DNA of 11,748 bases from Candidatus Wukongarchaeum yapensis (GTDB lineage Archaea; Asgardarchaeota; Wukongarchaeia; Wukongarchaeales; Wukongarchaeaceae): NCBI GenBank assembly GCA_016840425.1, contig JAEOSI010000049.1, positions 1-11,748 of the forward strand, written 5' to 3'. Below the pieces are notes generated by a model. The model was not told the DNA's origin. It made no database searches and worked only from the letters and a program-made list of their open reading frames with translations. Positions 1 through 10,987 of the stretch are shown here, piece by piece. How positions within the stretch are numbered: position 1 is the stretch's first letter; each line of letters opens with the position of its first letter. The position numbers and the translations under genes were made by a program.

Positions 1-928
1 AGTTGTTTATCATCGCATTAGCTTTTCTGCCTTTCACTTTCTTTCCACTGTTCTCTCTTATGCGTGTTACATCTCCTATGACGATTTCTGAAACTTCTTT
101 TTCCCAGCAGTTTTTGACAAACCTCGCTATTATCGTGTTTATCGATTGTGTGAACCTTTTCTGCCTCTTCCTAAACAATCTTCTTAGTCGTCTTGATGTT
201 TTCCTTTTCCCGTTTTTCTCCATGCTGCTTTGGTGTTCTCCTATTTTTCCGTTCCAGTACCACCAATCGCTTAACAAGCTTCTCCCAGAATATATCCATG
301 GCCTTTTTTCTCCTTCTATCCAACTGGTTATGATGTTTATGATCCCCAAGTCGACGTATGCCTTTTTATCTCCTGTTGGTTGATGTAGAGGTTTTTCTAC
401 CTCTACTGGCATATAAGCATACCATCTCCTTGAGAGGTCATCATAACTTATCTCTAACCTTCCCTGCTTTTTTCCTTCCCACCTGTTCTTTCCTTTCCAC
501 CTAACTTTTAGCCTGAAGGGGAGTTTTAGATAGTTCTCGGAAAGCTTATAACAGTTACACCTTATGAGAATGGTTAAAGCTCTCCTCCCTGTTTTCCTGT
601 CTTTCCAGTAGCTTGGAGGAGAAACTTTCCTTATCTGCCTTGGGAGTTTTCCCTCCTTTTTCAACCTTAACAAAGCGAAGAAAGACTTCCAAGCCTCGTT
701 GTTCTTCCTTGTTACTTGTTGGGCTGTAGCAGAACCTATAACCTTCTTGTATTTGTGATAGAAAAAGTCGGTGTTCCAGTCGAAGTTTCGCGAGAAAAAA
801 GACTGTCTTCTCTTATAGTTTATCTCGTTAAACATCCTTGCGCAGTTATCGGCTAACTCGAACAACCTTTGCTCTTGCACCTTATTCGGGCTTAGTCTGA
901 ACGTGTTGGTTCTTCTTCTTCTTCTCAC
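1..928 (-). CDS. tnpB: RNA-guided endonuclease TnpB (3'-truncated by window edge; 309 codons visible)
   Basis: Manual translation from GTG at 928 is open to position 2: MRRRRRTNTFRLSPNKVQEQRLFELADNCARMFNEINYKRRQSFF...IGSATAQQ...WKSFFALL...PPSYWK...AYVDLGIINI (RuvC-I Asp, codon 352-350)...EIVIGDVTRIRE...NAMINN. AGAGG lies 7 nt upstream of the GTG. Not in the ORF track, probably because it has no stop inside the window. Confidence 0.93.
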   Translation of the reverse strand, partial: MRRRRRTNTFRLSPNKVQEQRLFELADNCARMFNEINYKRRQSFFSRNFDWNTDFFYHKYKKVIGSATAQQVTRKNNEAWKSFFALLRLKKEGKLPRQIRKVSPPSYWKDRKTGRRALTILIRCNCYKLSENYLKLPFRLKVRWKGKNRWEGKKQGRLEISYDDLSRRWYAYMPVEVEKPLHQPTGDKKAYVDLGIINIITSWIEGEKRPWIYSGRSLLSDWWYWNGKIGEHQSSMEKNGKRKTSRRLRRLFRKRQKRFTQSINTIIARFVKNCWEKEVSEIVIGDVTRIRENSGKKVKGRKANAMINN

Positions 929-1040
929 TTAACAGCCTCTTTATCACGTCAGAATACGTGTCTCCTACCTTCATCATCGACTTTAGCTTGTTCGCAACTT
1001 CTCTGTCGATGGAAATCTTAACCTTATCCTTTTTATCCAT
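882..1040 (-). CDS. 52-aa ribbon-helix-helix-like DNA-binding protein (CopG/VapB-antitoxin-like pattern), overlapping tnpB start by 47 nt
   Basis: MDKKDKVKISIDREVANKLKSMMKVGDTYSDVIKRLLSEKKKKNQHVQTKPE*. It has an alternating beta-strand (VKISID), helix, G-D-T turn and YSDVIKRLL helix. ATG at 1040, TAA at 884-882, TATA box about 30 nt upstream. Confidence 0.8.
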   Translation of the reverse strand: MDKKDKVKISIDREVANKLKSMMKVGDTYSDVIKRLLSEKKKKNQHVQTKPE

Positions 1041-1070
1041 TTTACCCCAAACACCAAAAAGGATAAAAAA

Positions 1071-1078
1071 TATATAAA
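1071..1078 (-). promoter_or_regulatory. Archaeal TATA box (TTTATATA) driving the RHH-tnpB unit
   Basis: Matches the TTTAWA consensus, lies between the left-end hairpin and the RHH ATG, 30 nt upstream of the ATG. Confidence 0.6.
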
Positions 1079-1084
1079 CCTATC

Positions 1085-1132
1085 GCAATCCATCCCCGCC
1101 CTAAAGGGCTGGGGCCTTCTTGCTCACCTTCA
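1085..1132 (-). repeat. IS200/IS605 left-end imperfect palindrome
   Basis: Minus strand: TTAC|TGAAGGTGA-GCAA-GAAG-G-CCCC(A)GCCC-TTTA-GGGC-GGGG-ATGGA-TTGC. This is a GC hairpin with a one-base bulge, a GAAG foot and an outer GCAA/TTGC stem. Confidence 0.85.
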
Positions 1133-1187
1133 GTAATCTTTTTCTTTTAAACCGTCTAATAATTTTTTCGTTATTGTTTTTTTAGTG

Positions 1188-8368: not shown

Positions 8369-8815
8369 ATGGGATCTAAAATAGGTAATAAGAAGGGGGG
8401 GATATTCAAAAAAGGCGAAGTAACGTTAGAAGAAGTGATTGCAGCTGTAAGAGAAAACTCGGATTTTTATAAAGCAGGTGCTATTGTAAGTTTTGTGGGG
8501 GTAGTTCGCGGTGTTACAAAGGAGGGAGAAGAGGTTCTAGGTTTGGAGCTTGAAGCTTATGAAGAGAAAGCTGAAGAAGTGCTTTTAGAGATAGTAAGAG
8601 AAATTGAATCAAGGGAAGATATTGTTGATGCAAGGATCTTTCACGCTGTCGGAGATTTCAGCGTGGGTGAAGATTTGGTATACGTTGTTTTAGCAGGAGG
8701 TCATAGAGAAGATCTTTTTCCAGCGCTTAAAGAAGCGGTTGAAAGTTACAAAAAAAGGGCATACATATGGAAAAAAGAGAAAACAATAAGCGGTGAGAGA
8801 TGGCTTGAAGAGTGA
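8369..8815 (+). CDS. moaE: Molybdopterin synthase catalytic subunit MoaE
   Basis: GAIVSFVGVVRG, LELEAYEEKA, GHREDLF, IWKKE...GERW. Confidence 0.92.
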   Translation: MGSKIGNKKGGIFKKGEVTLEEVIAAVRENSDFYKAGAIVSFVGVVRGVTKEGEEVLGLELEAYEEKAEEVLLEIVREIESREDIVDARIFHAVGDFSVGEDLVYVVLAGGHREDLFPALKEAVESYKKRAYIWKKEKTISGERWLEE

Positions 8816-8872
8816 TACTGCACTCTTACAGACCGAAGTTCCATACATGTCAACAGACTGTTCCATTTTTAC

Positions 8873-9083
8873 TTTGTCGGCGGGAAGTCTCCCTGTGAAA
8901 GCGGAGAGATGAAAGCCGAATAATAACAAGATATTTTATAGTCATAATAATAACAATATAAAAGCGTAGGGTAGGGATTACCCGAATTTACGCCTGCTGA
9001 GACAGAACCTCTACCAAGAGAAATCCAGGCAAGTTCAGTCGTTGAACCAAGGAAGCTCCCTGCGGCGGCTGGGAGTAGTTCAC
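8873..9083 (+). mobile_element. 211-bp non-autonomous IS200/IS605 mini-element (PATE/MITE-like): left end + AT-rich spacer + tnpB 3'-tail/omegaRNA + right end
   Basis: TTAC (8869-8872) precedes the left end TCGGC-GG-GAAG-TCTCC..GAAA..GGAGA-GATGAAA-GCCGA (8877-8919). The right end is GAAG-CTCCC..GGGAG-TAGT-TCAC (9052-9083). No transposase or nuclease ORF lies inside. Confidence 0.82.
8934..8941 (+). promoter_or_regulatory. Candidate TATA box (TTTTATAG) for the omegaRNA
   Basis: Purine-rich AACAAGA just upstream; about 25 nt upstream of G8964, where the first structured stem begins. Confidence 0.5.
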
Positions 9084-9103
9084 TTGTGCTGAAACTTTTC
9101 GAG
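8964..9103 (+). ncRNA. Putative TnpB omegaRNA (scaffold 8964-9083 plus ~20-nt guide 9084-9103 TTGTGCTGAAACTTTTCGAG)
   Basis: Nested stems GCGTA/TACGC and GGGTA/TACCC, plus CTCT/AGAG, GTTCA/TGAAC, GCCTG/CAGGC and the terminal CTCCC/GGGAG hairpin ending in TCAC. The frame from 8966 reads VG*GLPEFTPAETEPLP..QASSVVE, which I recognise as the typical tnpB C-terminal tail that overlaps omegaRNAs. Confidence 0.75.
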
Positions 9104-9121
9104 TGATAAAGAGAAAAATAG

Positions 9122-9778
9122 TTAGGGTGTGTATTCGAAGACAAGGACTTCTGTCTCTTCCGGTAGGTCATTTTTCGTGATTGTCACCGTGTTTGACCCC
9201 GCTTTTTTGACTTTTTTACCCTCTAAAAACGGCTCAAGGCTTCCGATGCCTACGGTAAGCCCTGGAAGTTTATAATGCATGGGGACTACTATGTTAGGTT
9301 TTAATTGCTCGGTGACGATAGTTGCGCTCTCAGCGTCGACTGTGTAAACTCCGCCTACTGGTACGAATAAAACGTTTACTTTTCCAATCTTCTCTATTTG
9401 TTCTTCTGTAAAAGTGTGGCCGAGATCTCCTGTATGGCAGAACTTTATCCCGTCTAATTCGAAAACAAAAACGGTATTGTCTCCTCTTAGAGATCCCCCT
9501 TTGTCATCATGCTTGACAGGTACGCCTTTAACATGAAAGTTACCAACATTGTATGATCCTGGTTTGTCAATTACTTTTTTGTAACCTTTAACCACTTCTG
9601 GATGGTTATGATCAAAATGGGAATGAGAAACAAGAACGATTTCTGCCGTAACTTCAGGCTTTTTTAGACCGATGGATACACCATCATGAGGGTCTATAAC
9701 GACGCCTAAAGTCTCCCCTTCAACTGGGGACCCCTCAACAAGCCAACACGCGTGGCCAAACCATGTTACCTTAGCCAA
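9122..9778 (-). CDS. MBL-fold metallo-hydrolase (Lactamase_B_3-like)
   Basis: WFGHAC, IDP, VSHSHFDH (HxHxDH), H..GD, PVGG, VPMHY; TTG start after GGGGGG. Confidence 0.92.
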   Translation of the reverse strand: MAKVTWFGHACWLVEGSPVEGETLGVVIDPHDGVSIGLKKPEVTAEIVLVSHSHFDHNHPEVVKGYKKVIDKPGSYNVGNFHVKGVPVKHDDKGGSLRGDNTVFVFELDGIKFCHTGDLGHTFTEEQIEKIGKVNVLFVPVGGVYTVDAESATIVTEQLKPNIVVPMHYKLPGLTVGIGSLEPFLEGKKVKKAGSNTVTITKNDLPEETEVLVFEYTP

Positions 9779-9955: not shown

Positions 9956-10987
9956 ATGAATTCGTTAGAAAGGTTAGAAGCAGCTATGAATTTGGAAGAG
10001 CCTGACAGAGTTCCACTTTTTTACTTATATTTTGGAGCTGGACATTCTGTGCTCAATGAACTTGGCGTTACTATGAGAGATGTCTATTATACTGCTCAAG
10101 GAATCGCGCGGACACAACTGAAAGCCAAAGAAATGTTCGGGCATGATAATATTATGTCACCATGGGGATGCATAACTGTTGAGGCTGAAGCGCTGGGTTC
10201 AAAGATTGAGATAAAGGAAATGGACTACCCTAAAATAGTTGAATATGTTGTAAAGGACCCTAGTGATGTTGATAATCTAGAGGTTGCAGACCCTTTAAAA
10301 GACGGAAGGATGCCGATAGTATTAGAGAGCTTAAAAATACTTGTAGATACTGTAGGCAAAGATATCTCGGTTGTCGGATTCATGGCCTCACCGTTTACTA
10401 TTTTAGACGGGATAAGAGGATTTGATCAAATTGCAAGAGATATGCTGCTGAACCCTGATATTTTAAAGAGGATGTTAGAGATAACAACACGCACTTGCAT
10501 AGAATATGGAAAAACCATGATAGACCAAGGAGTAAATGTAATACTGGTAAAAGACGGGTTCGCTGGCGCCGATGTAATGAGTAGGACGCAATGCTCGGAA
10601 TTCGATATAAAATACTTAAAACCAGTTGTAACATCGCTACAGAATTACGGTGCAAATGTAATAATAGGTAATGTTTCTAGTAAGCCTTACCTCGATATGC
10701 AAGCCGCCTTGAATCCGGATGCCATTTGTTTCGCAGCAGGAGATATAGGCGAAGTTAAAAAGCAGCTTAGAAATAAGGTGTGCTTAATAGGGAATGTAGA
10801 TCATGCAAAAATGCCCTTCAAGAGCGCAAAAGATGTCGAAGAAGAAGCAAAGTCTTGTATAGAGAAGGCAAAGGAGGGAGGTGGCTATGTTCTTTCTACC
10901 GGTTGCGAGATTCCATTAAAAACCCCTACAAATAATGTTAAAGCACTGCTAACAGCGATAGAACGATACGGCGTATATCGAAGATAG
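9956..10987 (+). CDS. Uroporphyrinogen decarboxylase / MtaA-CmuA methyltransferase superfamily protein, divergent active site
   Basis: MNSLERL..EEPDRVP, TVEAEALG, DGRMP, SPFT, GNVD, GGYVLSTGCEI..TP. It lacks both the HemE RQAGR motif and the MtaA HxC motif. Confidence 0.85.
   Translation: MNSLERLEAAMNLEEPDRVPLFYLYFGAGHSVLNELGVTMRDVYYTAQGIARTQLKAKEMFGHDNIMSPWGCITVEAEALGSKIEIKEMDYPKIVEYVVKDPSDVDNLEVADPLKDGRMPIVLESLKILVDTVGKDISVVGFMASPFTILDGIRGFDQIARDMLLNPDILKRMLEITTRTCIEYGKTMIDQGVNVILVKDGFAGADVMSRTQCSEFDIKYLKPVVTSLQNYGANVIIGNVSSKPYLDMQAALNPDAICFAAGDIGEVKKQLRNKVCLIGNVDHAKMPFKSAKDVEEEAKSCIEKAKEGGGYVLSTGCEIPLKTPTNNVKALLTAIERYGVYRR

Follow-up and report, generated by a model that had tools for sequence, protein, structure and literature searches.

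The window analysed here, an 11,748-nt stretch of contig JAEOSI010000049.1 from Candidatus Wukongarchaeum yapensis, contains a 211-bp element at 8873–9083. It is a protein-free derivative of an IS200/IS605-type insertion sequence (IS) that carries the RNA module of its family, and it lies in a genome (G000) that also encodes an intact cognate TnpB. There is little doubt that it is a mobilised palindrome-associated transposable element (PATE) equipped with an omegaRNA module. A derivative of this kind, keeping both ends and the omegaRNA scaffold, had been proposed in an initial annotation made from the letters of the window; it was borne out by homology to tnpB 3' ends and by a covarying structure, and the flank, left-end hairpin, spacer, tnpB tail, right-end hairpin and TCAC terminus that had been listed were all in place. 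Further copies with different flanks, a full-length parent tnpB, an empty insertion site in relatives and a covariance model had been named as checks, and each was obtained. The parts of the element, in window coordinates, were as follows:

8867–8872, plus strand: left flank and target motif (transposon-associated motif, TAM) TTTTAC; placed by the alignment of copies, the left ends of relatives and empty sites
8873–8918, plus strand: left end (LE), a long imperfect hairpin; from the sequence, with the same layout in the full-length element on contig C137 and in the distant relatives L045, L072 and L079
8919–8966, plus strand: AT-rich spacer with a TATA-like box; from TTTATA spacing across the spacer-bearing copies
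8967–9083, plus strand: omegaRNA scaffold, homologous to the last ~35 tnpB codons plus the right end; from tnpB 3'-end homology and covariation
9052–9083, plus strand: right end (RE), with GAAG foot (9052–9055), hairpin (9055–9076, the P5 stem of the RNA) and terminal TAGTTCAC; from the invariant GTTCAC, the copy alignment and the empty site
9084–9103, plus strand: right flank TTGTGCTGAAACTTTTCGAG, the predicted guide, and the predicted target behind the TAM in the empty allele; from position, by analogy with characterised TnpB systems (PMC8612924)

Mobility, copies and ends of the element

The site of the element was empty in a genome of the same genus, G001, a metagenome-assembled genome (MAG) deposited as 'Candidatus Hodarchaeota archaeon DZ1B.339' (NCBI places it in a phylum within the Asgard kingdom Promethearchaeati). 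Here, the flanking genes moaE and a metallo-beta-lactamase-fold gene (MBL) were 91% identical to those of the window and 212 nt were absent between them; CCATTTTTAA was joined directly to TTGCGTCAAAATTTTCGAG, which begins TTGCGTC, where the window has CCATTTTTAC (last base 8872), the element and then the right flank. An identical 212-nt skip was present in contigs from two sediment/marsh metagenome runs (X4 and X7). These contigs were 6–9% diverged from the window and therefore represent the empty allele of a sister lineage; excision within the same population was rejected as an explanation. G001 also lacked the protein-free copies on C77, C168 and C177 at the orthologous or paralogous positions, while in the converse case G001:C79 was occupied and G000:C156 empty. 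Presence and absence thus differed with G001 at five loci, the empty sites being scarless and without target duplication; the family has therefore moved after the split of the two species.

The assembly of G000 (2.16 Mb in 277 contigs, 92% complete) gave 33 BLAST matches to the element. Eleven were near end-to-end copies of ~200 bp, on C175, C201, C160, C168, C177, C88, C77 (two), C147 and C253 and in the window itself, and 14 were restricted to the right 117 nt. A covariance model of the scaffold (R1) identified 27 strong copies in the same genome, 13 of them protein-free and about 14 linked to tnpB. Two further derivatives (C144:3474–3742 and C154:4359–4634) were ~270-bp forms with a different, GC-rich spacer that lacks the TTTATA box, and a deletion derivative of ~920 bp with a broken tnpB was found at C232:1689–2607. 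Two different miniature elements, at C175:3570–3876 (L002/L029) and C253 (~10001–10271), had each received in the GAAA loop of the LE hairpin a ~306-bp element with terminal inverted repeats (TIRs) CAGTCTATCCGCGTGTTAA ... TTAAAACACGGGTAGACTG; these insertions recall the small mobile repeats aimed at the palindromes of Haloquadratum PATEs (PMC3119063).

Homology among copies ended exactly at 9083 in every copy and GTTCAC at the RE was invariant in 26/26 homologues; the element terminates in TCAC (9080–9083), and cleavage is placed after C9083. The LE, which is presumed to be the TnpA binding site, comprises an outer stem (CGGC at 8878–8881 with GCCG at 8915–8918) and an inner stem (TCTCC at 8888–8892 with GGAGA at 8903–8907, loop GAAA), with a GAAG foot at 8884–8887 directly 5' of the inner stem; the hairpin is followed by GATGAAAG. 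The RE hairpin is CTCCC...GGGAG at 9056–9075. The arrangement is that of a PATE, with subterminal hairpins on the same strand (8878–8918 and 9055–9076), both GAAG-footed, and without TIRs. Within the 211 bp no transposase or TnpB was found, the only tnpB-like frame being a ~38-codon tail with an internal stop; overlapping open reading frames on the minus strand (8690–8929 and 8869–9171) were not searched against families.

The left boundary was less sharply defined. The family consensus for the left flank was TTTAAC, as seen in the type-B copies described below, C175, L045, L072, L079, L054, L052 and L128, and the deviants were C137 (TTAAAC) and the window copy, whose TTTTAC is one base off the consensus. 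TTAC, which had been taken as the target word at the left, was rejected on this evidence; its likeness to the IS608 word is a coincidence, because the conserved family motif is TTTAAC. Four occupied/empty comparisons fitted slightly better, with fewer edits, when the conserved C was taken as the first base of the element and TTTAA as the target. For C177, TTTAA followed by TGCAATGCC aligned without an indel to TTTAA followed by CGCGATGCC in its paralogues, and likewise for C79 and C77, while the window comparison was a tie. The left boundary is therefore given as 8873, possibly 8872, and the element measures 212 bp if C8872 is included.

The ends resemble those of IS608 from Helicobacter pylori: each is a top-strand hairpin with a 4-nt guide at its 5' foot, the element inserts 3' of a short word, and excision is scarless. 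The guide/cleavage pairing scheme reported for IS608 had been said to fit exactly in the form GAAG:TCAC. This held for the right end, but because GAAG foots both hairpins, the left end obeys the rule imperfectly: with GAAG set against TAAC, TTAC or TTAA, one position is either unpaired or a wobble. The element departs from the IS608 scheme in having GAAG at the left foot as well, with T(T/A)AC or TTTAA as its left motif, and in a target word other than TTAC.

Parent tnpB family and transposase

The right 117–122 nt of the element matched the 3' end and right end of an IS1341-type tnpB elsewhere in the genome, with 82–87% identity to tnpB 3' ends plus RE over the right 117 nt. This GC-richer segment (8967–9083) reads VG-stop-GLPEFTPAETEPLPREIQASSVVEP, while intact tnpB copies terminate in ...VLGQGLSEFTPGETEPLPREISASSVVEPGNSPR-stop, and the matches restricted to the RE close a tnpB frame with the tail ...VVLKRGLEEVLGQGLSEFTP.E.EPLPREISASSVVE.G. 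Two intact genes of the cognate family were present, on C137 and C59, the latter with an open frame of 412 aa. The C137 TnpB (P0002) is a protein of 397 aa with Pfam OrfB_IS605, Cas12f1-like TNB and helix-turn-helix domains; residues 6–361 matched ISDra2 TnpB, for which the structure has been solved (E = 5.8e-48), and the RuvC motifs GIDMG, AVEKLN and GRDYNS were located in its translation by eye. A cognate TnpB that looks catalytically intact is accordingly at hand in the same cell. The TnpB fold ends near residue 361, and the miniature element keeps exactly the last ~35 codons. The C137 element is tnpB-only (IS1341-type) and its LE is laid out as in the window: TTTAAAC followed by TTATTTAACGAGAAG, the hairpin and GGGGATGAATC, then GTTTATAAAAG, then tnpB.

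Five other copies of the cognate-family tnpB (in G000, C19 at ~960–1100, C180, C109 and C34 at ~9150–9280; in G001, C17, L046) shared a ~130-nt upstream region TTTTTTTATTCGTTTGAAAGCCTAATATATTCACTTTTACCCC...TTTATATA... and an N-terminal extension MKIGYQVISYKF, and had no recognisable LE hairpin. These copies may be immobilised, or may be part of another unit.

Only one intact gene for a Y1 TnpA transposase was found in the assembly (C70, 139 bits), along with one fragment. Its family shares the end layout of the element (TTAC, AAAG foot, hairpin, ATGAAT) but has another stem sequence.

The window also contains a tnpB at its left edge, and the reservation in the initial annotation as to whether this was the cognate gene proved justified: it was rejected as the cognate nuclease, having 23% identity to P0002 over 203 aligned residues. 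Its N-terminus was near-identical to that of the tnpB behind the C70 tnpA, and no R1 match was associated with it. Its own LE lies at about 1085–1135 on the minus strand (TTAC...AGAAG-GCCCC...GGGGA-TGGAT); the region 929–1140, minus strand, reads GATTAC followed by TGAAGGTGAGCAAGAAG-GCCCCAGCCCTTTAGGGCGGGGA-TGGAT and then TTTATATA, the gene itself running off the window. A 52-codon open reading frame (MDKKDKVKISIDREVANKLK...) lies just upstream of its start, which it overlaps. The other genes of concern in the window are the convergent pair between which the element sits:

2–928, minus strand: tnpB from another IS605 family, lying outside the element; 23% identity to P0002
8369–8815, plus strand: moaE, upstream of and co-oriented with the element; Pfam MoaE, E = 1.7e-26
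9122–9778, minus strand: MBL, downstream and convergent; Pfam Lactamase_B_3, E = 4e-51

The RNA scaffold, its candidate promoter and its predicted guides

The evidence for structure is covariation, since a single-sequence fold of the 235-nt stretch was not exceptional, scoring only marginally above shuffled sequences (z = -1.8 and -1.95). The alignment comprised 26 homologues: the copies from G000, a pair from G001 and its record, and a further nine, diverged ones from Aenigmatarchaeota, Woesearchaeota, Methanocellales and other MAGs, where TnpB identity was 44–60%. RNAalifold returned a consensus of five helices and 28 pairs, all on the plus strand:

P1, 8969–8974/8978–8983, plus strand: 6-bp hairpin
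P2, 8993–8996/9048–9052, plus strand: CCUG/CAGG, closing the multiloop, with A9049 bulged
P3, 9001–9003/9038–9040 and 9005–9008/9033–9036, plus strand: GAC.GAAC/GUUC.GUC
P4, 9014–9019/9024–9029, plus strand: variable apical hairpin, with mismatches A9016/A9027 and A9017/C9026
P5, 9055–9063/9068–9076, plus strand: right-end hairpin

Standard pairs filled 96.5% of 723 pair cells, against 23–43% when the partners were slid by 1–3 columns. Changes on both sides affected 15 of the 28 pairs, against 5.1 +/- 1.5 in column shuffles, none of 500 shuffles reaching 15. This was plainest in P1 and P4: P1 is GGGCAG/CUGUCC, changed to CCGCUG/CGGCGG in L050 and to GGGUAG/UUACCC in the window, and P4 was swapped for unrelated 3–7-bp stems in distant relatives; both helices were fully compensated in distant homologues. 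By analogy with IS608, TnpA requires the terminal hairpin, and P1–P4 fall outside it. Their conservation therefore points to a role as RNA, or at least as a single strand, in keeping with the omegaRNA of characterised TnpB systems (PMC8612924). As in an omegaRNA locus, the homologous segment runs from the tnpB 3' end through the RE in C137, C59 and others. An extra helix (GAAUU:AGUUC), suggested by RNAalifold for the type-B alignment, was rejected; its strands are invariant in the family and the 5' strand is absent in L042.

The miniature copies carried the scaffold in two versions. The full scaffold (type A) was found in the window and C175, which are 91% identical to each other. In nine copies (type B), P4 and the upper part of P3 were replaced by a short loop, with GAU-GGAU...AUCC-CGUC closing directly; P1, P2, the base of P3 and P5 were kept and the scaffold is about 105 nt. 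Type B is a natural miniaturised scaffold. If it works, then P4 is dispensable. The window copy is not pristine; besides its departures in P2 and P4 it has T for G at 8998, and the positions at which it varies are those at which other copies of the family in metagenomes differ.

Of 31 genomes of the phylum that were sampled, 12 had R1 matches, the highest number in any one genome being 32. Among the matches inspected, G024:C32 is a protein-free element of 190 bp built to the same plan, and protein-free elements of ~280 bp occurred in G010, G020 and G030, belonging to other families of the phylum. With several of the matches protein-free, omegaRNA elements of this type are common across the phylum. 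Several matches in G010, G020, G030, G024, G013 and G004 (loci L120–L128) were protein-free elements of ~190–300 bp from related families, with a 99-nt scaffold.

A TATA-like box, TTTTATAG, lies at 8934–8941, 34–35 nt upstream of P1. TTTATA occurred 32–35 nt before the first base of P1 in 12/13 spacer-bearing copies from three genomes, the exception having TTTGTA, and this spacing was held in G001:C79 and G024:C32 despite their otherwise different spacers. Sister copies on other contigs of G000 carry the box TATTTATA, and GTTTATAAAAG occupies the corresponding place in the full-length LE, ahead of tnpB. In archaea, the TATA box lies at about -26 from the transcription start. We infer that the box in the spacer is an archaeal promoter, probably the former promoter of tnpB, with a predicted start at 8963–8965, a few bases short of P1; given the preserved spacing to P1 and the position of GTTTATAAAAG ahead of the full-length tnpB, the deletion would have placed that promoter before the scaffold. 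The RNA could instead derive from moaE read-through that TnpB then processes (PMC10278001). A T4 run at 9096–9099, 3' of the element, could be the end of the transcript.

The guides predicted from the right flanks of the 27 copies, taken as 16 nt, each had one exact match in the assembly, in their own flank. A second site was not found for any of the 27 as an exact match in the genome, and near matches behind a TAM-like word were limited to the C177 guide, with two seed mismatches against two paralogous IS copies, and one other site, also with two mismatches. As each guide matches only its own flank, there was no sign of RNAs aimed at other loci, and the dispersed guide library that had been envisaged exists only in the weak sense of 27 copies, each with its own guide. 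The C177 copy (C177:4058–4258, L014) is of type B and lies, in antisense orientation, within the 3' portion of a tnpB from a further family. Its guide, TGCAATGCCTACTCTT, matches the paralogous copies of the host IS on C61 and C212 behind TTTAA, with the two mismatches proximal to the TAM.

Comparison of occupied with empty alleles showed differences concentrated at the final base of the target motif (C vs A, A/deleted, G) and over the initial ~12 nt of the right flank (4–6 differences), more than further out. The flanks compared were 8872 and 9084–9099 of the window with L034, L017 with L130, L129 with C156 (~1000–1040), and L014 with L135/L136. These differences could reflect escape from TnpB targeting, or fast-evolving intergenic DNA; the sample of five loci is mostly intergenic DNA of that kind, with C168 uninformative, and is a lead rather than evidence.

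Proposed mechanism, alternatives and related systems

The observations are probably best explained by a non-autonomous IS200/IS605 PATE that relies on TnpA and TnpB in trans and homes on its own empty joint. An internal deletion in a tnpB-only (IS1341-type) insertion sequence would have removed almost all of tnpB, fusing the LE and the tnpB promoter to the last ~120 nt, that is, the omegaRNA scaffold plus RE. A Y1 TnpA acting in trans would excise the top strand and insert it as single-stranded DNA next to TTTAA(C). An RNA of about 135–140 nt would start ~30 nt downstream of TTTATA, or be processed from moaE read-through, and run through the scaffold into the right flank, so that its last 16–20 nt (TTGTGCTGAAACTTTTCGAG) match the empty donor joint. 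The cognate TnpB from C137 or C59 would load this RNA and cut the empty joint at TAM + TTGTGCTGAAAC..., and recombination with an occupied genome copy would restore the element. It is somewhat more likely than not that the family expresses its RNAs and that TnpB uses them in trans; that the window copy itself is still fully competent is possible but doubtful.

Several observations weigh against this explanation. The window copy had the second-lowest R1 score among full-type copies, 125.5 bits where the others, bar one, had 127–149 bits; its P4 has two mismatches, A9049 is an additional base in its P2 (3' strand), and its non-consensus TTTTAC could block both excision and targeting. The type-B copies are 93–97% alike, too similar to test selection, so that their intact pairing could reflect youth instead. 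All the protein-free copies may stem from one or two deletion events, in which case the scaffold could have been retained by chance, through the position of the deletion end point. The assembly, 92% complete, has a single intact tnpA, and this is a member of another IS family, with a CTCAA/TTGAG stem as opposed to TCYCC/GGRGA; its match to these hairpins is uncertain, as is trans-mobilisation by the C70 TnpA. Rfam, HgcC and HEARO included, gave no match at gathering thresholds over the whole window, and at permissive E-values 8800–9160 gave only two chance-level matches with E of 1–5 (HPnc0580 and RT-3), HgcC not appearing at E <= 10. A search for RNA runs with the element returned none. In the single RNA-library run where a small share of words occurred, a leaf-litter metatranscriptome (X20), there were moaE contigs and, in a contig of 223 nt, 55 nt that aligned to a related scaffold with eight differences before a different RE hairpin; these contigs are without strand or ends and are therefore not evidence of expression.

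Much of this would also suit a passive hitch-hiker, a deletion remnant mobilised by TnpA in which the scaffold was kept by the end point of the deletion, no working guide RNA is produced and TnpB is irrelevant to upkeep. All protein-free copies can be grouped in two or three lineages that share deletion junctions, so few founding events are needed; the similarity of type-B copies, the P2/P4 defects and the off-consensus target motif of the window copy all agree with it, and Haloquadratum PATEs as short as 52 bp appear to be mobile without any scaffold (PMC3119063). It is nevertheless judged less likely, because independent protein-free derivatives in other families (G024:C32; G010, G020 and G030) retain the scaffold, and G024:C32 the TATA-like box too; in type B the apical helix alone is lost to the deletion, which restores a closed stem, and the spacing of TTTATA to P1 is conserved though the spacers differ. 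The position of the element between convergent genes, co-oriented with moaE and followed by the T4 run, might instead suggest a domesticated 3' untranslated region or terminator of moaE, or a small RNA independent of TnpB, in place of a homing guide. There is precedent for phenotypes of such RNAs in an archaeon, since sense overlapping transcripts (sotRNAs) and a PATE-derived RNA have been studied in Halobacterium, the latter improving growth (PMC4615843). Yet, with the sister species empty at this site, the locus has no conserved host role attached to it, the copies occur in unrelated contexts (one nested in another IS), and the structure matches the tnpB-linked RNA of the family; domestication is accordingly very improbable. 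As for a chance arrangement of hairpins in an AT-rich spacer, the marginal single-sequence fold is what it would predict, but it is refuted by presence and absence with respect to G001, by 27 homologous copies, by homology to tnpB 3' ends and by covariation, and can be put aside almost entirely.

The preferred explanation, a PATE homing with the aid of TnpB, may be carried further to the guide RNA as the unit of selfish spread: miniature omegaRNA cassettes with their own promoters, outnumbering intact nuclease genes by ~6:1 and reliant on one or two TnpB proteins and a foreign TnpA, with the excess of differences that separates occupied from empty alleles, at the final TAM base and over the first ~12 nt of protospacer, being the footprint of selection by TnpB at empty sites. 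This extension is speculative and is considered improbable.

Among known elements, the closest parallels are the PATEs of Haloquadratum walsbyi and other haloarchaea, which are protein-free, have subterminal palindromes, derive from IS605/IS1341-type elements by core deletion and far outnumber intact transposases (Dyall-Smith et al. 2011, PMC3119063). The present element resembles them in being protein-free, in lacking TIRs and target duplication, in its similar subterminal palindromes and in inserting next to a 4–6-nt word; its family shares with them the origin by core deletion from IS605/IS1341, numbers exceeding those of transposase genes, strain- or species-specific insertions, and palindromes hit by small TIR elements, here at C175 and C253. 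It differs in its host, an Asgard-type MAG, and the 2011 work predates omegaRNA and was made without analysis of RNA structure or promoters. PATEs have since been said to 'often encode omegaRNAs' on which TnpB must act in trans (bioRxiv 10.1101/2023.03.14.532601), and stand-alone omegaRNAs work in trans according to the summary of Altae-Tran 2021 in PMC10691335. As with those stand-alone omegaRNAs and with the PATE-like omegaRNA elements of Geobacillus stearothermophilus (Meers et al. 2023, bioRxiv 10.1101/2023.03.14.532601), an omegaRNA locus lacking effector and transposase has been mobilised and coexists with effector-bearing copies, the guide would come from the flank beyond the right end, and trans cutting of the empty donor joint is proposed. 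Those cases are bacterial and were tested by biochemistry or genetics, whereas the present element is archaeal and known from sequence, and has its own apparent TATA promoter and a shortened version of the scaffold.

The likeness to ISDra2 TnpB and its right-end RNA (PDB 8bf8, 8exa and 8h1j; Karvelis 2021, PMC8612924) extends beyond the match of P0002 to the RuvC D-E-D residues and an RNA that overlaps the tnpB 3' end and RE. The TAM, however, is TTTAA(C) as opposed to TTGAT, the scaffold is unrelated at the level of Rfam, and ISDra2 carries tnpA and tnpB where the parent family is tnpB-only. In Halobacterium salinarum, a PATE-derived RNA and RNAs in sense to tnpB 3' ends (sotRNAs, HgcC-type) are expressed (Gomes-Filho 2015, PMC4615843). 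These too come from an archaeon, are non-coding and overlap the 3' ends of tnpB in sense, and one derives from a PATE, but the region studied here gave, beyond the chance-level matches above, no Rfam family at E <= 10, HgcC included, and its RNA is a prediction.

The element thus has the features of PATEs that could be tested, as well as the structural and positional features of omegaRNAs. Protein-free omegaRNA elements and stand-alone omegaRNAs acting in trans have already been published, and the present findings confirm ideas proposed, and partly shown, in bacteria and haloarchaea; new here are the host lineage, the conserved spacing of TATA box to scaffold and the shortened type-B scaffold. 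The outcome is a fully delimited archaeal protein-free omegaRNA transposon from a lineage near the eukaryotic root, for which the empty site, the parent family, intact candidate nucleases, a covariance model and a candidate promoter are all available. Its family offers type B, at ~105 nt, as a naturally minimal scaffold and, for the 397-aa TnpB, a likely TAM of the TTTAA type; the many unique guides in each genome make the homing model testable in metagenomic populations, through TAM or seed escape at empty alleles.

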